Origin: Pseudomonadota bacterium
Lineage (GTDB): Bacteria > Bdellovibrionota_F > JAHFAK01 > JBDREC01
Direction of reading: 5' to 3'
DNA length: 20,000 nt
Assembly: GCA_043820105.1 (NCBI GenBank)
Contig: JBDREC010000041.1
Span: 50,258 to 70,257 of the forward strand
Below the pieces are notes generated by a model. It had not been told where the DNA came from, searched no databases, and was given only the letters and a program-made list of their open reading frames with translations. The position numbers were made by a program, and so were the translations under genes. Shown here one piece after another: positions 2,512-19,119 of the stretch; within the stretch, counting starts at the first letter, position 1; every line of letters begins with the position of its first letter.

Positions 2512-3085
2512 TTATTTATTTTCAAACAGCTCTTTTATCACCGTACTGTAAAATTTATGTTCTACGTTTAAGCCCTTTTCTTCAACTTCAGAAAGTGTTT
2601 TACAAAAACTTAAGTCAACATCTGCTTGTTTGATGATTTTTCCTGTATCTACACCTGAGTCAACATAATGAACCGTAATTTTTGTGCGAGACATTTTTTT
2701 ATTAAAGGCCCATTCATAAGCATGTGCCCCTTGATACTCTTTAGTATCAGCTGGATGAATATTAATTATTCTTCCTTTGTAATAATTTACAAATAATGGT
2801 GACAATATTCTCATAAATCCAGCCAGGATTATATAGTCAGGATTATATTTAGCAAGAACTTCTATCATTTTTTTTTTCAAACTCTTCTCTGGATCTTTTT
2901 TTAGAGTTAACTAATTCGGTTTTTATTCCCATTTTACTGGCTAATTCTAGCCCTTTAGCTCCTTTTTTATTTGAAAGAACACAGGATATTTCACAAACAT
3001 CCTTTAAAATGCCATTTTTGGCATTTTTAGCAATAGCTATCATGTTTGAACCGCGACCAGAGATAAGTATAGCAATTTTTTTCAC
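2512..3085 (-). pseudogene. purN: Phosphoribosylglycinamide formyltransferase, frameshifted in an A10 homopolymer (2868-2877)
   Basis: The 5' ORF (GTG 3085) has IAILISGRGSN. The 3' ORF has LAGFMRIL, INIHP and HYVDSGVDTG. Removing one A joins them (…SREEFEKKMIEVLAKY…) into a 190-aa PurN. Confidence 0.93.
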
Positions 3086-12041: not shown

Positions 12042-12539
12042 ATGAATTTTAGAAATCTTTTAAGAAAAGTTTGCTTATTTTCTTTAATAAGCTTTAACAT
12101 TGCAGTTTCAAACCAAACAATTGAAAATCCTGCACAAAGCTTTTCAAGGTGCAAGCATACACTTGAAAAACAGGGGATCTTCCAATCAAATTACTATGAA
12201 TGGGTTAATCATTATTGTGAAAATACAACTATTAACGAGCTGGCAAAAGTAAATAGTTGTGCATATCAATTAAGTGAAATTTACAATGTAGAGAGATTGG
12301 ATTATGCATATTTTAGATGCTTTCATTTTAATGGAACTAGAACAAATGAATTACTAGAATGCACTGATAGCTTAACAAAAATGGGAGTTAGCGGAGAATA
12401 TGCTTCTTACAGATGTTATCATAATATTTACAGAGAAGATGAGCTAATATCATGTACAAAATGGACACAGGTCTTAACCTTTGGTGATGCTGAAATTGCA
12501 TCTTATAGGTGTGCTGGAGTTGATTATAGAATGTGGTGA
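12042..12539 (+). CDS. Secreted hypothetical protein with four Cys-pair repeats
   Basis: Signal-like N-terminus, then four units C-x(17-21)-C ending NHYC, YAYFRC, YASYRC, IASYRC. SD AAGGGG. Confidence 0.8.
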   Translation: MNFRNLLRKVCLFSLISFNIAVSNQTIENPAQSFSRCKHTLEKQGIFQSNYYEWVNHYCENTTINELAKVNSCAYQLSEIYNVERLDYAYFRCFHFNGTRTNELLECTDSLTKMGVSGEYASYRCYHNIYREDELISCTKWTQVLTFGDAEIASYRCAGVDYRMW

Positions 12540-12626: not shown

Positions 12627-12920
12627 ATGATATATAAAAAACCATTCGTAAAATGTCTAACAGGCATAAAGAAAACTGCTTGCTATAATGGTTCATCTGC
12701 CTCAGGTGGACTCGCTGACAGTACTTGTGATACTAATGGAATATCGCCACACGACACTTGTGGAAATGGCCCGAATAATATTGATGGATATGGCGCTTGC
12801 AATGCAAATGGAATTTCAGCGGGAGCTTGTAATAGTAATGGATCAGATGTTAGCTTGGCTAACTGCTCAAGCGGAACAAGCGTCTTATCTTGTTTGACCG
12901 GTCCTTCAGCAGCTTCCTAA
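12627..12920 (+). CDS. Cys/Gly/Ser/Asn-rich peptide, putative radical-SAM RiPP precursor
   Basis: Leader MIYKKPFVKCL (YxxP motif). All 8 Cys are followed by Gly at +3 or +4. No signal peptide. Confidence 0.7.
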   Translation: MIYKKPFVKCLTGIKKTACYNGSSASGGLADSTCDTNGISPHDTCGNGPNNIDGYGACNANGISAGACNSNGSDVSLANCSSGTSVLSCLTGPSAAS

Positions 12921-14863
12921 AAAGCCAACTGAAATGCAGCATTTCCATCTAGAACAAATATCACAGTATTTTCCATATATCCATAACTAGATGGATTTTT
13001 TTCATCGGATTTTTCTATAGTTACATTAGCTGCATTATCTAAATCATTATCAACAAAAACCTTTGGCAATATTACATCTTCGAAATTAGAAGAATCTATA
13101 TTCTTGAGCTGCACCATTATAGCTTTATCATAAAGCCCATCAGCAACAATACTAAAAGCAGCTGTCACAGAATCACCAATAGAATCACCTATCAGATCAT
13201 CTATAGCAGAAATGGTGACCAAAGTTCCTTCAAGAAAGTTTTCCGGAGGAATTTCAACAAATAAATCATAAAAAATATTTTCAGGATCATCACAGCTTAA
13301 ACGATAAGCTCCTGTTCCCAATTCAACTTCTCCACCTTCACAAATATCAACTTCTTCAAACTCTACTAATCCATGACCTTCCTTCTTACCATCTGTCTTC
13401 TCTCCATCTTTCTTCTCTCCGTCTTTCTTCTCTCCGTCTTTCTTCTCTAGATCATCCTTTTTCTCTCCATCTTTCTTCTCTCCGTCTTTCTTCTCAAGAT
13501 CATCTTTCTTCTCTCCATCTTTCTTCTCTAGATCATCCTTTTTCTCTCCGTCTTTCTTCTCTCCGTCTTTCTTCTCTAGATCATCTTTATTCTCTCCATC
13601 TTTCTTCTCTAAACCATCTTTATCCTTACCTTCTTTATCCTTATCACTAACAGTCTTATCATCTTCCCCTGTTTTTTGTTTATCGCTACCTCTACCATCA
13701 TTTTCTCTTACCTTATCTAAAGCATCATTCATACTATCATCATTAAATAGACGCCCTTTTTCTTTGATTTCTCCCATTTTTTCATCGATTTTTTCATCTA
13801 CATCCATTGCTAAATCTGATATTTTAGAAAGCTCATCTTTTTCGATTTTTTCTTTTATTCTTTCACCCATATCAATTGAAGCTGCTTGTGAAGATGCTGC
13901 ATATTCAAAAGCTTCAGCCATTGCCTGCATCCTATCTTCCTTGCTTGATGCTGCCTGAAAAGCAGTCATTGCATTAGTTTCAGATTCTTTCACTCCCTCA
14001 TTCATTTCAGAAATAAGCTGGGCAGCACCGGCTGCTGCTTCTTTTATATCAACTTCAATGTTAGAATTATTATTAAAAGAAGCTCTTTCAGATGCTTCTT
14101 CTATTATGTCTGAAATTACATCTTCTGAATCACTCATACCAGCGCCATATTCACCATTTGCTATTGAATTAGCCATGCTTTGCATTGACATAGAAAAATA
14201 ATTTTGAGTAGTAACCTCCGAAGCAATAGTTTCTCCAATAGCCCCTAAAGTACTAGTTGATGTATTAATAATATTCATTATCTCTGTTGATCTGGAAGCT
14301 GTTGCTAGAGCAGCTGTTTGTAAGCTTAAATCATCACTTGAAGCAAGGGCCAGGTGATCATCTTTTAAAATATCAAGATCACCAGATAAACCTAAAGATG
14401 CTGAAACAAAATCAGCAGCTTCAGAAGCTGAATATCCTTGTGATGCTACAAAATCCTGAACTATGGTTGTAATAGGTGTAACAACTACAGATGAAACACC
14501 GTCTTCAGCTTCAGGGCTTGGTGCCCTTAATATACCTTCAAATTCTGAAACTGTTGATACATCTGTTCCTTCTGTAACAACAATAGAGCCAACACATGAG
14601 GGATTAATAAATTCAAAGTTTCCCTCACTATCCGTTTCAGTACTTGGTTCAGAAGCATCAATCTCTCCACTCTCATCACAATCAAGACCAACAGTTGATC
14701 CTGACAAATAGCCATCAATTGCAACACCATTTATTGTCATTGCAATAGTAGTTGTATCATCAACATCACCAGTGTTTCCTATATTGCCAAAAAATCCTTC
14801 ACATGAGATGATTAATAGACTAGTTAATAATATTGTGATTATTGTTAAATAAGATCTAAGCAT
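12917..14863 (-). CDS. Large acidic lipoprotein with Ca-binding-like loop and KKDGE repeat tract
   Basis: Lipobox LIIS-C. N-terminal GVAIDGYLSG…LDCDESGEIDASE…TDSEGNF…VTPITT beta domain, helical middle, charged repeats, C-terminal beta domain. SD GGAGG. Confidence 0.8.
   Translation of the reverse strand: MLRSYLTIITILLTSLLIISCEGFFGNIGNTGDVDDTTTIAMTINGVAIDGYLSGSTVGLDCDESGEIDASEPSTETDSEGNFEFINPSCVGSIVVTEGTDVSTVSEFEGILRAPSPEAEDGVSSVVVTPITTIVQDFVASQGYSASEAADFVSASLGLSGDLDILKDDHLALASSDDLSLQTAALATASRSTEIMNIINTSTSTLGAIGETIASEVTTQNYFSMSMQSMANSIANGEYGAGMSDSEDVISDIIEEASERASFNNNSNIEVDIKEAAAGAAQLISEMNEGVKESETNAMTAFQAASSKEDRMQAMAEAFEYAASSQAASIDMGERIKEKIEKDELSKISDLAMDVDEKIDEKMGEIKEKGRLFNDDSMNDALDKVRENDGRGSDKQKTGEDDKTVSDKDKEGKDKDGLEKKDGENKDDLEKKDGEKKDGEKKDDLEKKDGEKKDDLEKKDGEKKDGEKKDDLEKKDGEKKDGEKKDGEKTDGKKEGHGLVEFEEVDICEGGEVELGTGAYRLSCDDPENIFYDLFVEIPPENFLEGTLVTISAIDDLIGDSIGDSVTAAFSIVADGLYDKAIMVQLKNIDSSNFEDVILPKVFVDNDLDNAANVTIEKSDEKNPSSYGYMENTVIFVLDGNAAFQLAF
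13383..13645 (-). repeat. Coding tandem repeat of 15-nt (KKDGE) and 18-nt (KKDDLE) units
   Basis: Nine KKDGE and four (N/K)KDDLE units are interleaved in the translated protein. On the + strand the DNA unit is tctccRtctttcttc. Confidence 0.92.
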
Positions 14864-15201: not shown

Positions 15202-16935
15202 TTATTCAACCGTAAAGTGAAGAATATAATGATTATTTGGGGCATCCATATAATGGGTCATCAAGTAAACATGAGTCTCGTTATTTATTTCAACAACTTC
15301 TAGACCAGCGAACCATGTTGCAGTAGAAACAGAATTTAAGAATGCTGAATAATCTGCTACAAATAAAATATTTCCTTCTAAATCAGCAAGCATTAAGGAT
15401 CCGCCATTTGTTACGAAAATATGATCTTGGGTAACAGAAATATTGTGATATGGCCATTGACCGTCAGCTGGGTCATTTCCGCTTGAATCAGTTAAGGCAA
15501 TATTTGCTTGCCTTGTGCCATCAAGATCAAATTTCTCGATAACATAACTTCCAGTATGTACAAGCCATAGATATTCATTTCCAGAAGAGTCTGTTGCAAT
15601 GTCAAAGTCTACGAAATAGAGAGTATCACCTTCAAAACTGTCTTCAAAAGAAAAACTTGAAGAATCCTGCCTTTTAGTTATATAATCCATTGTACTTGTA
15701 TCAATTTGCAAGATACTTCCATCTCTATTATCAGCAATATAAAGAATATCATCGTAAATAAGACCATGCAAAGATGAATATCCATGATTTAGAGCTTCAT
15801 ATGTTGAACCCAAAGAAGTCCCTGAAAAGTCAGGGAAATTCACATAATTTCCTATTCCTGTATAAAAAACAAACAGGCCTACTGATGGATCATAGGCTAA
15901 ACCTGAAATAGGATTGGTATTTTCAAGAGTGCTTATATTATCATACAAAGATAAATCAATGTTTGTAACTTGATTTAATGTCATATCACTATTTAATGAA
16001 ACAACTCCGATTTCAGTATTTCCATCTGTAAATAAAATCGTATTATCAGTTGAATTATAAGCAAGCTCTCTTGGCCACATTTCAGAGCTAACACCGATAT
16101 CTATGCTTTCAACATAGGTAAAACCTTTGGTAAATATTGTTGAAGAACTTGAACCTCGTGATGCAGCTTGATCAAAAGTGATCTCAGCCAAAGAGGATGT
16201 ATAATCATTATTTGAAGCTGAAATTGTTCCAAGATCAACTTGAACAATATCAGTATCCTCACTAGCCTGAGAATCAATTTCTTCTGCTATGAGCTCAAAG
16301 ATATCTGCTGATCCATCAATTGAAACCGTTTCAAGAAGCAAGAATTGATAATTTGCAGCTGACTCAGATTTAATAACAATATACACATTTGTATTTAGCT
16401 CATAATCTGTACTAGTAATAGCTTTAAAAAATGATTCATCATCTTCTTCATATGATAATGTAAAGCTACCAGTAGTTGAAACCACAGAATAAGCCAGGGC
16501 ATCTGTAAAAGCATCAACTATTGTTGAGTCACTTGTTGAATCACTAGAACCTGAGAGCTCCAGGGCTACAAATAAGATCAAATCAGAAAAACTAGAGGTG
16601 TCACTAGCACTTGAATATTTTTCAAAAGCCTGCTGGGCTTTAAAACCTGAAAGGCCTGATGTAATTTCTGAAACATTTGTCACATCTGTCCTGGTAATGA
16701 TATCAGTTCTTGAAATTATATCAGTTCTTGAGATTATATCTGCATAAATAGTTAAAGGATCCAAGGTTCCGGTGACAGTAATTTCTGTAAAATCAGATAC
16801 TTGAACTTGAGAAGTTGCAGAGCTTTTTGAGTTATAACTAAAATCATTTTGGGCGATGCAGGAAGATAGAATTTGGATTAGGATTAAGCTTATGATTAAG
16901 ATAAGTTGCTGGATGTAAATGAATAAACGTTTCAT
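15202..16935 (-). CDS. Acidic Ser/Thr-rich lipoprotein with probable C-terminal beta-propeller
   Basis: Lipobox ILSS-C. The C-terminal half has repeated propeller-like blades (ELAYNSTDNTILFTD, GLAYDPSVGLFV, ILYIADNRDGSILQID, YLWLVHTGSYVIEKFDLDG). Confidence 0.78.
   Translation of the reverse strand: MKRLFIYIQQLILIISLILIQILSSCIAQNDFSYNSKSSATSQVQVSDFTEITVTGTLDPLTIYADIISRTDIISRTDIITRTDVTNVSEITSGLSGFKAQQAFEKYSSASDTSSFSDLILFVALELSGSSDSTSDSTIVDAFTDALAYSVVSTTGSFTLSYEEDDESFFKAITSTDYELNTNVYIVIKSESAANYQFLLLETVSIDGSADIFELIAEEIDSQASEDTDIVQVDLGTISASNNDYTSSLAEITFDQAASRGSSSSTIFTKGFTYVESIDIGVSSEMWPRELAYNSTDNTILFTDGNTEIGVVSLNSDMTLNQVTNIDLSLYDNISTLENTNPISGLAYDPSVGLFVFYTGIGNYVNFPDFSGTSLGSTYEALNHGYSSLHGLIYDDILYIADNRDGSILQIDTSTMDYITKRQDSSSFSFEDSFEGDTLYFVDFDIATDSSGNEYLWLVHTGSYVIEKFDLDGTRQANIALTDSSGNDPADGQWPYHNISVTQDHIFVTNGGSLMLADLEGNILFVADYSAFLNSVSTATWFAGLEVVEINNETHVYLMTHYMDAPNNHYILHFTVE
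16684..16740 (-). repeat. Coding 18-nt tandem repeat (DIISRT)x3
   Basis: The protein reads DIISRT DIISRT DIITRT D. Confidence 0.8.
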
Positions 16936-17031: not shown

Positions 17032-19038
17032 TTATATACCTAATTCATATGTGTTTTCAATAAAAACAACATTCGCCAGATAATGATAAGACCCATTAGA
17101 GTATTCTTTCATCTTTTCAATTGCCCCAGAATAATCATCAACACAAGCCTCAGTATATTCACTTAAACCTCCTTCATATAAAGCATATATAAAGTTGCTA
17201 TATGCTCTATGCGAAACGGCGGAGGAACCGGCTAGAGGCTTTTCAGCTCCTGTTGTATAAGTATCTCTAAAATAAATTGAATACCCTTGTTCCGTATATT
17301 CTTCGAGAAGATTAATATCAACATCCATGCGTCCATATCCTTCTGTAGATGTCGATATTTCAAAATCATTAAGTTCTATATAATCTGTTGCTGATTTATA
17401 TGCATATACTTTAATAGTATCTTCATTCACTACTGTTGTGGTATTTTCTCTAAAAAAAACAAATCCTAGACTAATAGATGGGGTCAAAAGAAGTGAAGAA
17501 AACTCACCTTTTATTCCTGAAATTTCTCCATCAGAATCATTCTCAAGAAAATCAATAATTTCACTTTTAGTGCTTGTTGAACTTAATCCTGTTATTGAGG
17601 CATTGTCTTCAGCTCTCATAATGTCAGTTAATGACACCTCATATTCAACAGATTCAAATGAATAATAAAATTTCGCAGAACAACCTGAAGAATCCAAACA
17701 TGAAACAATATCATCAAGATTCGCTTCAATAGTACAAGTAGAAGAACTAATTTCACAACTTCCAAACACATCGCCATTATCACTTCTTTTAAAAGAAATG
17801 CTTTCCTCTTCTTCTATTGCATCGCCTGCTGAATCAACAAAAGAAAGTGATAAAGAAATAAGATCCGAAGAAGTAATAGCAATTGAATGGCTTTTATTCA
17901 CAGTTGCAGCCATATTATCGCTTCCTGTCTTTGGTGTAGCGGAAGCTGAAAATACCAAGGCTAGTGAATCAATACTTTGATAATTAAAAGTTATTCTATA
18001 TTCATTGTCATCTTCATATTGTCCTATACTGGGTTGGGAAAAAACACCAGCTTGTACAGCATATCCAAATTCTACAACTCCATTTTCATAATAAACCTTT
18101 GAAGCATTTTCATCAAAAGTAAAATCATAATCAAATAGGCTTGTATCTGTGATTTCATTACCCTCAGAATCAGTAGCGACAATATCAACATCAATTGTTA
18201 CACTGTCATCATCATATGAACTTGTAATATTCATATCAATTGAAAAAACAGTAAGCTCACCATCAACTGTGACAGTTGCCTGTTTTGCCAAATTTTCACT
18301 TAACGTAAATGATACAGATGAACATTCATTTTCAAGTACAACGGTATGGGTATAATCTGTTGCTTCATTTTCAGTTATTTCAAAAGTATGTTTAATATAA
18401 TTTCCTTCAATTGTAGGTGTAACTGAAGCAGCAGCAGAAGACCCAACTGCATAGCTCATTGTAACCGTATATTCACTTGGATCAATTATTTCTATGGTTT
18501 GAACATCTTGAATCGCAATTGACAAAGTTCTTTCATTAGCCGCTGTTTCTGCGTAATTTTTCAGAACTTCTGCTACAACTAAATCCTCACAAGCTGCTCC
18601 ATCTGTTCCAATATACATTTCAAAGCTAATTGTTGCATTCTCTGTTACTTCTACTTCCTGGCTTGATATATAAGGCCCACCAAATTCACCATTTGCATCA
18701 ATCGTTAAAGTTGCTGTCACTGTTCCTTTTGTTACAGCAATCTCAGAAGCACTGAAAAGTCCTTCTGCATATGATAAATCATAAGTACTTGTTGAATTGG
18801 AATCTGTTATTGAGACTGATACAGATGAAGCAAGACTAGAAGGATCTTGACCAGCGTCCATTGAAAACTTTGCATTTATTCCAATTGAAACCATATCTTC
18901 TTTTTCTAGAATTTCTTGATTAGATGAATCTACAGTATCCTTATTATTAGATGAAGTACATCCTACCATGAACAATATGAATTGAAATAAAACAACTATT
19001 AAGAAATTTCGTGACCTGACTATTATTTGCTTTTTCAT
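17032..19038 (-). CDS. Large acidic beta-rich lipoprotein (probable Ig-like domains)
   Basis: Start reassigned from TTG 19053 to ATG 19038 (GGAGG SD). Lipobox FMVG-C. Asp/Glu/Ser/Thr-rich with an alternating beta pattern. Confidence 0.8.
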   Translation of the reverse strand: MKKQIIVRSRNFLIVVLFQFILFMVGCTSSNNKDTVDSSNQEILEKEDMVSIGINAKFSMDAGQDPSSLASSVSVSITDSNSTSTYDLSYAEGLFSASEIAVTKGTVTATLTIDANGEFGGPYISSQEVEVTENATISFEMYIGTDGAACEDLVVAEVLKNYAETAANERTLSIAIQDVQTIEIIDPSEYTVTMSYAVGSSAAASVTPTIEGNYIKHTFEITENEATDYTHTVVLENECSSVSFTLSENLAKQATVTVDGELTVFSIDMNITSSYDDDSVTIDVDIVATDSEGNEITDTSLFDYDFTFDENASKVYYENGVVEFGYAVQAGVFSQPSIGQYEDDNEYRITFNYQSIDSLALVFSASATPKTGSDNMAATVNKSHSIAITSSDLISLSLSFVDSAGDAIEEEESISFKRSDNGDVFGSCEISSSTCTIEANLDDIVSCLDSSGCSAKFYYSFESVEYEVSLTDIMRAEDNASITGLSSTSTKSEIIDFLENDSDGEISGIKGEFSSLLLTPSISLGFVFFRENTTTVVNEDTIKVYAYKSATDYIELNDFEISTSTEGYGRMDVDINLLEEYTEQGYSIYFRDTYTTGAEKPLAGSSAVSHRAYSNFIYALYEGGLSEYTEACVDDYSGAIEKMKEYSNGSYHYLANVVFIENTYELGI

Positions 19039-19119
19039 TACACTATCCTCCAAAAAACATTAATAAAAATATATTTCCTGGATTTTTAGCGTTTTATAGG
19101 CAAAGTTAATAAAACATTT

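Follow-up and report, generated by a model that had tools for sequence, protein, structure and literature searches.

The window considered here, a stretch of 20,000 nucleotides from contig JBDREC010000041.1 of a Pseudomonadota bacterium, contains at positions 12627 to 12920 of its forward strand an open reading frame (ORF) encoding a protein of 97 amino acids, hereafter P0001. With a probability of roughly 0.7, we consider P0001 to be a stand-alone member of an expanded family of ScmA-type precursor peptides that is modified in trans, via the mechanism proposed below, by dispersed enzymes of the SynChlorMet (SCM) cassette. This reading is carried by the equivalence, judged from sequence, of the P0001 family to ScmA peptides encoded within such cassettes in other genomes, and by the finding that the genome from which the window derives encodes intact Scm genes that are unlinked to 23 of its 24 precursors. 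The kind of system is already known from curated models (ScmA, TIGR04252; ScmC, TIGR04249 and Pfam PF27840; ScmD, TIGR04248; ScmE, TIGR04250; ScmF, TIGR04251); what is distinctive is the combination of 24 dispersed precursors with a cassette divided among four sites. Throughout, C-numbers designate contigs of the source genome (G000) and L-numbers designate fetched loci.

The P0001 ORF, whose extent (12627..12920, stop codon included, forward strand) and translation agree with those given in an earlier note made from the letters of this DNA alone, is a real gene. Its annotated frame has the best codon usage log-odds among the six (0.168 per codon; 915 real 97-codon chunks give 0.240 +/- 0.092), its N-terminus reads MIYKKPFVKCL, and a stop lies upstream after just four more in-frame codons, giving an open frame of 101 amino acids. 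As previously noted, every Cys is followed by Gly: the eight Cys of the peptide have Gly at either +3 (five cases) or +4 (three cases; CDTNG, CNANG, and CNSNG), a pattern reached in 1 of 200,000 residue shuffles. Among the 97 residues are 14 Gly, 15 Ser, 10 Asn, 10 Ala, and 7 Thr and, again in keeping with the earlier description, the N-terminus lacks a hydrophobic stretch and no signal peptide is evident by eye. Residues 1-18 (MIYKKPFVKCLTGIKKTA; 12627..12680, forward strand) compose a putative leader with a presumed boundary ahead of the first repeat, in which Y3 and P6 are invariant across the family and V8 occupies the position of a Leu. Residues 19-97 (12681..12917, forward strand) compose the putative core, with seven Cys units at C19, C34, C45, C58, C68, C80, and C89, four of the form C-x-x-G and three of the form C-x-x-N-G.

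Modeling of P0001 with AlphaFold2 (AF2), for which 21 paralogs were supplied, gave a mean predicted local distance difference test (pLDDT) score of 46 and a predicted template modeling (pTM) score of 0.20, values too poor for a fold search. Residues 1-10 alone reach a pLDDT of ~80, and the core, at less than 50, is predicted to be disordered; the missing fold of the core in the model would suit a substrate peptide, and is weak evidence for one. A disulfide-bonded beta-helix like that of beetle antifreeze proteins was considered for P0001 and dropped, each repeat containing a single Cys and the protein having neither a signal peptide nor a predicted fold.

The locus itself offers no partner for such a peptide. 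The P0001 ORF occupies most of a gap of ~380 bp between the ORF at 12042-12539 (forward strand) and the convergent gene at 12917-14863 (reverse strand), the 3' end of which, encoding a 648-amino acid protein, it overlaps by four bases. Consistent with the statement of the earlier note that no radical S-adenosylmethionine (SAM), RiPP recognition element (RRE), or peptidase gene lies nearby, RiPP denoting a peptide that is made by ribosomes and modified post-translationally, a Pfam scan of 16 ORFs of the window identified no radical SAM, PqqD, or peptidase family. The designation of P0001 as an orphan therein thus holds for the locus, at which no enzyme is encoded, but not for the gene, which has 23 paralogs.

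These paralogs were reached by way of a weak second six-frame match sharing the leader, then a motif scan, and then an iterative hidden Markov model (HMM) search of every ORF of 30 amino acids or more (24,608 in total) in the source genome (3.81 Mb, 113 contigs, 92.9% complete). The search converged on 24 family copies across 20 contigs, P0001 included (E 2.2e-12), giving P0001 23 paralogs; a six-frame search of the genome with the family profile returned 23 places. Twenty-two copies begin with M-K-Y-x-K-P-x-L or a near variant thereof, and some 10 residues past this leader motif is found C-x-x-G-S-x-A-S followed by further C-x-x-G units, six to nine such units being common to the paralogs. 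Across an alignment of 28 family sequences (A2), 22 of them from the source genome, Y3, P6, C19, G22, and C34 (P0001 numbering) are invariant, and C45/G48, C58/G62, and C68/G72 are nearly so. Within 21 paralogs of the genome, Gly is located at +3 for 125 of 139 Cys and at +4 for 8 more. Approximately 20 of the paralogs are intact and four copies look degraded, two of them (C68 and C10:43817) represented by six-frame matches that cross an in-frame stop and two (C65, 51 amino acids; C10:44276, 44 amino acids) by short ORFs.

The surroundings of the copies are mixed, including housekeeping genes, toxin-antitoxin pairs, and transposases, and nine of the 24 copies have a contig end less than 4 kb away. 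Inspection by eye of the regions upstream of the 24 copies revealed no common motif, and comparison of their flanks by blastn revealed no DNA in common except that of a tandem pair on C6 and three matches of 29-36 bp, so that neither recent duplication nor a common mobile carrier is supported as the source of the copies. Among 211 of the 226 neighboring ORFs within 7 kb of the paralogs, Pfam analysis (113 ORFs at E <= 1e-5 and 98 at E <= 1e-10, the second set omitting eight paralog ORFs, an overlapping ORF of 80 residues at L043:7664-8149, and six ORFs of L044 already scanned) identified no RiPP enzyme adjoining any copy. Genes or gene fragments of IS200/Y1-type, REP-associated-like transposases adjoin three of the 24 paralogs (C103:60994-61986, a Pfam Y1_Tnp match, together with C76:96252-97151 and C3:2485-2706, both judged by eye).

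An NCBIfam scan of the 28 aligned members returned a sole family, TIGR04252, "SynChlorMet cassette protein ScmA", to which two of the 28 matched weakly (best E 0.065). Of the search against precursor models envisaged by the earlier note, then, the family yields these two matches and P0001 itself yields none. The weak match to TIGR04252 led to a search of the genome for the other cassette proteins, and it is here that the maturation enzymes predicted by the note to lie elsewhere were encountered. ScmC (C111:8008-8883, reverse strand; 235.9 bits, cut-off 125), ScmD, a PqqD-type protein encoded directly upstream of ScmF (C10:153581-153874, reverse strand; 123.9 bits, cut-off 100), ScmF itself (C10:152422-153543, reverse strand; 546 bits, cut-off 400), and a second ScmF (C10:129209-130279, forward strand; 433.7 bits, cut-off 400) all score above their curated cut-offs, and an ScmE-like protein (C1:89818-90996, forward strand) scores 378 bits, below the cut-off of 400, despite being aligned to 353 of the 358 model positions. 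The second ScmF gene is preceded by one encoding a soluble S26 (SipW-like) peptidase of 210 amino acids (C10:128565-129197), which keeps the GPSMKP box and has no N-terminal membrane segment. Lastly, an ScmA-type paralog of 69 amino acids (C111:7785-7994, reverse strand) is encoded on the same strand as ScmC and 14 bp downstream of it; this copy is the one of 24 that adjoins an Scm gene, the other 23 being unlinked.

Several characteristics of these proteins bear upon what they might do. All three radical SAM proteins, namely the two ScmF proteins and the ScmE-like protein, keep the CX3CX2C motif and have seven Cys within the last 120 residues, the SPASM region. Weak matches were obtained for ScmF and the ScmE-like protein to models of StsB, AlbA, SkfB, and PapB and, among structures, to those of SkfB and CteB. 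For the ScmC profile, the nearest solved structure is that of HPr kinase/phosphatase, in the P-loop region (E 4e-4), in agreement with a Pfam Hpr_kinase_C match (E 8e-4), while ScmD reaches 28.0 and 27.1 bits with lasso PqqD models, short of their respective cut-offs of 70 and 80.

The genes neighboring these loci are varied. At L065 (C10:126.5-133.7 kb), two genes for ArsA/Get3-like ATPases and genes for a GDP-mannose dehydratase and a GDP-fucose synthase are followed by those of the S26 peptidase and the second ScmF, after which are encoded two proteins of ~525 amino acids, one of which combines a Laminin_G_3 domain with a weak TafC-fimbrial match; the S26 peptidase might also, or instead, serve these ~525-amino acid proteins. 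At L020 (C10:149.8-155.2 kb), the ScmD-ScmF pair is flanked on one side by the gene for a Wzz-like chain-length-determinant protein and on the other by that for an AAA ATPase similar to the one associated with XrtA/PEP-CTERM (240.8 bits against a cut-off of 324.5).

Beyond the source genome, P0001 is difficult to find by itself. Searching 5.8 billion proteins with the single sequence recovered nothing but P0001, a profile word-search added one foreign protein, and an exhaustive profile search of 1.84 billion proteins, seeded with three sequences, returned 11 proteins at E <= 1e-3, of which four are from the source genome, six are small foreign peptides of like architecture, and one is a protein of 3050 amino acids. 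Neither a family match at E <= 1e-3 nor an ScmC above cut-off was found in the three nearest relatives (96, 81, and 86% complete) or in 37 other sampled genomes, and a weak match in G022 (E 0.008 with the first profile) was gone with a better profile. From the failure to find family and ScmC in these genomes it follows that the SCM system was probably acquired.

Searching from the enzymes was more productive. A word-indexed protein search with ScmC identified 103 homologs at E <= 1e-5, several of them named ScmC by NCBI or JGI, and comparison of an alignment of 35 homologs with species-representative genomes produced 96 pattern matches, of which 91 were confirmed and the best 80 of the 91 kept. 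These best 80 loci, many of which end at contig ends, come from Victivallales/Lentisphaerota, Desulfobacterota, Chlorobium, Methanocella, Omnitrophota, Saganbacteria, Aminicenantes, and KSB1, among others. As assessed by phmmer with the proteins of the source genome, ScmC, ScmD, ScmE, and ScmF occur together in 42 of the 80 loci and in the order D-E-F-C in 31; an S26 peptidase gene directly follows that of ScmC in 53. The HMM of the P0001 family matches 31 small ORFs in 24 of the loci at E <= 0.01. A screen combining motif with adjacency (a leader of the form Y/F/W-x-x-P-x-hydrophobic, at least two C-x-x(x)-G units, and a distance of at most 700 bp from an Scm gene on the same strand) identified 69 ScmA-like candidates, a few of them visibly false, in 48 of the 80. 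Located typically between scmF and scmC or past the peptidase gene, these cassette-adjacent peptides start with K-Y-E-K-P-x-L, in which the P is invariant, and have Gly at +3 for 265 of 324 Cys and at +4 for 43.

Alignment by hhalign of 21 paralogs of the source genome with 63 cassette-adjacent peptides, the C111 copy having been left out of the former set and six doubtful candidates dropped from the latter, gave a probability of 99.0% (E 6.9e-18) over 91 columns that include the leader; the repeats and the G/S/C-biased composition may inflate this score and so count against leaning upon it, but the leader match and the genomic association stand independently of the figure. The leader K-Y/W-x-K/x-P-x-L and the C-x-x-G repeats are thus shared with peptides beside ScmC, ScmD, ScmE, or ScmF in more than half of the loci and, through the C111 copy, in the source genome as well, bearing out the pointer of the earlier note toward a SynChlorMet-type system. 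Of the outcomes that the note named as refuting its proposal, neither a genome devoid of any RRE or SPASM maturase nor a lack of homologs near maturases was encountered. The broader proposal made there, that of an RRE-docked, SPASM-modified precursor matured in trans, is likewise supported by the comparisons at the level of the family and of the genome. When the properties of cassette-adjacent ScmA peptides are compared with those of P0001, the leader (Y/W-x-x-P-x-[LIVM] with the first Cys 8-25 residues on; here Y3, P6, V8, and C19) and the core of repeated, single-Cys C-x-x-G units spaced at ~9-15 residues are present, and neither a score above the curated HMM cut-off (35 bits) nor adjacency to Scm enzymes is found; P0001 is therefore filed as a variant that would work like ScmA rather than as a curated member.

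Cassette-associated peptides also shed light on how the family is composed. The C111 copy closely resembles short, Ala-rich peptides encoded after the peptidase in Victivallales-type loci, on which grounds it is taken to be the cassette-type ScmA and the other 23 copies to be diversified long forms; similar long forms are found within the cassettes of L072, L076, and L078. Viewed across L067, L069-L072, L074, L076, and C111:7785-7994, two ScmA subtypes can be discerned: a short, conserved, Ala-rich form of ~69-74 amino acids encoded after the S26 peptidase (after ScmC in the source genome), and a long, variable form encoded among scmD, scmE, and scmF or dispersed, with both forms present in the cassette of L072. 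Dispersal of multiple copies is not unique to the source genome, as G041, the genome of L072, has 15 dispersed family matches at E <= 1e-3 around one cassette, demonstrating that orphan copies recur. These are distributed over 1.45-5.34 Mb of the chromosome, with seven clustered at 1.483-1.491 Mb and several lone copies distant from the cassette, itself at ~3.056-3.063 Mb, and six of the 15 cross a stop. Four other Scm-positive genomes contain three, two, zero, and zero family matches.

Taken together, these data suggest a mechanism in which the radical SAM enzymes encoded elsewhere in the genome probably modify the roughly two dozen scattered peptides. Docking would come about through binding of the leader, Y3-x-x-P6-x-V8, by the PqqD-type chaperone ScmD (C10:153581-153874). 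PqqD-type B1 proteins recognize the YxxPxL motif of lasso peptide leaders. In these leaders the motif is conserved at positions -17 to -12 (PMC10368454). The radical SAM/SPASM enzymes, that is, the two ScmF proteins and the ScmE-like protein, would then receive the disordered C-x-x-G repeat core from ScmD and modify each Cys unit, most plausibly by forming sactionine- or ranthionine-type cross-links derived from Cys; this chemistry is a guess prompted by the distant likeness that ScmE and ScmF bear to SPASM enzymes that form thioethers. The HPr-kinase-like ScmC may act as an ATP-dependent accessory protein and could possibly phosphorylate the Ser or Thr after C-x-x-G, position +4 being S or T in 69 of 114 units of the family in this genome. 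Finally, the soluble S26 peptidase (C10:128565-129197) would remove the leader.

A number of observations weigh against this reading. Firstly, the Scm genes are split over four sites, scmC-scmA on C111, scmD-scmF at C10:152.4-153.9 kb, the S26 peptidase gene and second scmF at C10:128.6-130.3 kb, and the scmE-like gene at C1:89.8-91.0 kb, so that the contiguity of the SynChlorMet cassette (D-E-F-(A)-C-S26, as in 31 of the 80 loci) is absent from the source genome; such a split cassette could be a decaying remnant. The shortfall of the ScmE-like protein relative to its curated cut-off counts in the same direction, as does the presence in the genome of three further PqqD-like proteins (C76:84177, C89:28059, and C4:45679). 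On the 70-kb contig of P0001 (C41), phmmer with the Scm proteins of the genome found no Scm, radical SAM/SPASM, PqqD, or S26 homolog. Secondly, P0001 is atypical within its own family, in which its HMM score is the 20th of 24: its leader has Val for Leu and contains a Cys, and three of its units are of the C-x-x-x-G form, a spacing observed for just 8 of the 139 Cys of the 21 paralogs examined, the three of P0001 included. P0001 may be processed poorly or may have ceased to be a substrate. Outside Y..P.L, moreover, conservation in the leader does not exceed that in the core (mean pairwise identity 0.28 versus 0.31). Thirdly, no six-frame score in the genome exceeds 12.7 bits with the ScmA model, the cut-off of which is 35, and P0001 has no NCBIfam match at E <= 1. 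To this can be added that no product or reaction of any SCM cassette was found in the literature searched, in which a query on the components of the cassette led to a paper on ruminococcin C and the main text of PMC10288494, for example, contains no mention of "Scm" or "HPr".

Several of these same observations invite the alternative that P0001 is a relic or repurposed paralog that is no longer processed by Scm enzymes and is either nearing loss or serving as an unmodified, small, Cys-rich peptide active toward metals or in redox chemistry. The lack of an enzyme at the P0001 locus, the Val, the extra Cys, and the three units with shifted Gly, the low rank of P0001 by HMM score, the visible degradation of some paralogs (C68, C10:43817, C65, and C10:44276), and the splitting of the cassette would all be expected of such a peptide. 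However, P0001 has an intact ORF in which all the residues that do not vary across the family (Y3, P6, C19, G22, and C34) are retained, its codon usage is gene-like, the AF2 model shows no autonomous fold, and the ~20 intact paralogs argue for continuing selection on the family, such that we regard this alternative as unlikely. A further possibility, and in our estimation an improbable one, is that P0001 is a RiPP precursor of another RRE system, for which a lasso-type cluster on C76 or a PqqD and radical SAM pair (C89:28059-29422) are candidates, the leaders being of a similar YxxPxL type. The three additional PqqD-like ORFs, one of which (C89:28059) adjoins a radical SAM gene, provide possible docking partners, and an Asn_synthase-type protein (C76:87822-89693) is encoded ~6 kb from the paralog at C76:95757. 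Lasso cores are ~15-25 amino acids in length, unlike the 79-amino acid Cys-repeat core of P0001. The family also lacks a conserved Thr at -2, its peptides adjoin Scm genes in 48 of the 80 foreign loci, and no copy among the 24 is found less than 6 kb from the other RREs; in favor of the lasso-type assignment is the fact that YxxPxL is the leader motif of lasso peptides (PMC10368454).

That the region is not a gene, its open frame having arisen by chance in a 380-bp intergenic stretch between convergent genes, might be argued from the lack of any family match for P0001 (none in Pfam, and no NCBIfam family even at E <= 1), from a scan for promoter- and terminator-like sequences at the locus that did not rise above shuffles (three found versus a shuffle mean of 3.7, with zero terminators), from a look-up of sequencing runs in which no RNA run was listed for the locus and the best DNA run contained 0.47 of the sampled words, and from the upstream AGG, which is just a weak Shine-Dalgarno-like site. 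Against this stand the 24 paralogs and the foreign homologs, with their position-specific conservation, the finding that codon usage favors the annotated frame over the other five in 24 of 24 copies, and the rarity among shuffles of the Cys-Gly pattern, all of which render this explanation very unlikely. On balance, the reading of P0001 as a stand-alone ScmA-type precursor modified in trans is retained.

Comparison with better known systems helps to define what is shared and what is not. With respect to the SCM cassettes themselves, the source genome resembles them in possessing ScmC, ScmD, two ScmF proteins, an ScmE-like protein, and the S26 peptidase of the cassette, and departs from them in the lack of linkage between P0001 and any Scm gene and in having its cassette at four sites and its 24 precursors dispersed. 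The curated ScmA model comprises 49 positions, whereas P0001, which does not match the model, is twice that length and has seven Cys units, three of them with an extra residue. Sactipeptide and ranthipeptide systems (SkfB, 6efn; CteB, 5wgg; PapB family, NF047865) similarly pair Cys-rich precursors with SPASM radical SAM enzymes; however, the enzyme similarity is distant, at no more than ~105 bits versus cut-offs of 340-850, and in SCM two radical SAM enzymes are accompanied by both an HPr-kinase-like protein and an S26 peptidase. Lasso precursors contain a conserved Thr at -2, a short core, and an N-terminal macrolactam acceptor pair. The P0001 family has no conserved Thr(-2), its long Cys-repeat core shows no macrolactam architecture, and in the SCM cassettes mapped here neither an Asn-synthase-type cyclase nor a B2 protease was seen. 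Similarity to lasso systems is found in the sub-threshold lasso PqqD matches of ScmD and in the placement of Y-x-x-P-x-L near the N-terminus of the leader and at a comparable remove from the core, with the Y at -16 from the first Cys here and the motif at -17 to -12 in lasso leaders (PMC10368454).

The overall organization recalls that of the prochlorosins, the leaders of which are longer than ~18 amino acids. There, according to sources such as PMC10783134, many dispersed ProcA precursors with a leader of the Nif11 family are modified by one promiscuous enzyme, ProcM, and the two systems have in common a large precursor family with a common recognition leader, diverse cores, and, for the most part, no linkage to a small set of enzymes. 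The enzymes of the two systems have no relationship, prochlorosins being modified by a class II lanthipeptide synthetase and a radical SAM/SPASM and PqqD chaperone pairing being envisaged here; the leader of ~18 amino acids contrasts with the longer one of the Nif11 family; and promiscuous processing, shown for ProcM, would here be a matter of extrapolation. With this parallel in mind, we tentatively suggest, as an idea with less than even odds, that one scattered SCM set processes ~20 unlinked precursors with three to nine C-x-x-G units each, forming a natural combinatorial library; as part of the same tentative suggestion, ScmD would be the common docking module for the minimal Y-x-x-P-x-L leader, with the two ScmF proteins, the ScmE-like protein, ScmC, and the S26 peptidase as the enzymes. 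We know of no description of a prochlorosin-like strategy for radical SAM RiPPs, no literature search having been aimed at that point.

The SCM cassette is widespread and is represented by curated models, and the literature searched contained no paper on its product. Twenty-four diverse substrates that share a minimal leader would provide a ready panel with which to probe the action and tolerance of ScmE and ScmF, and, if the library suggestion is true, P0001, in which C-x-x-G units are mixed with C-x-x-N-G units, would report on the tolerance of the enzymes toward ring or site spacing. The family is instructive for genome mining as well: approaches based upon gene clusters miss most such precursors, no enzyme being encoded close to 23 of the 24, and just two of the 28 aligned family sequences are caught by the curated ScmA model, both far under its cut-off.

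Additional observations concern the candidate lasso-type genes and the remainder of the window. A PqqD-like ORF and an Asn_synthase/GATase_7 protein of 623 amino acids (C76:87822-89693), together spanning C76:84177-89693, are probably part of a lasso-type cluster; these genes are 6-11 kb from the paralog at C76:95757-96086, with an IS110 transposase gene and RND efflux genes located in between. The window itself contains a purine-biosynthesis cluster and genes encoding a metallophosphoesterase, an EamA transporter, and several lipoprotein-like proteins of unknown kind. Among its ORFs are three large, acidic, and Ser/Thr/Asp-rich examples, all on the reverse strand (12917-14863, 648 amino acids; 15202-16935, 577 amino acids; 17032-19053, 673 amino acids), each with a lipoprotein-like N-terminus, in which a hydrophobic stretch ends in Cys, and none with a Pfam or NCBIfam family; the first contains a long run of DGEKKD(D)LEKK-type repeats. 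Upstream of P0001, the ORF at 12042-12539 (forward strand) encodes a secreted-looking protein of 165 amino acids with a signal-peptide-like N-terminus and ~10 Cys, several in Y-x-C or C-x-H contexts, for which no family match other than a sub-threshold one to zf-Nse was found. Within the purine cluster, the gene encoding a PurN-like formyltransferase (2512-3085, reverse strand) appears split, the ORF at 2512-2880 covering just positions 68-181 of Formyl_trans_N and a 78-amino acid ORF at 2849-3085 overlapping its start, an arrangement that could result from a frameshift or an assembly error.

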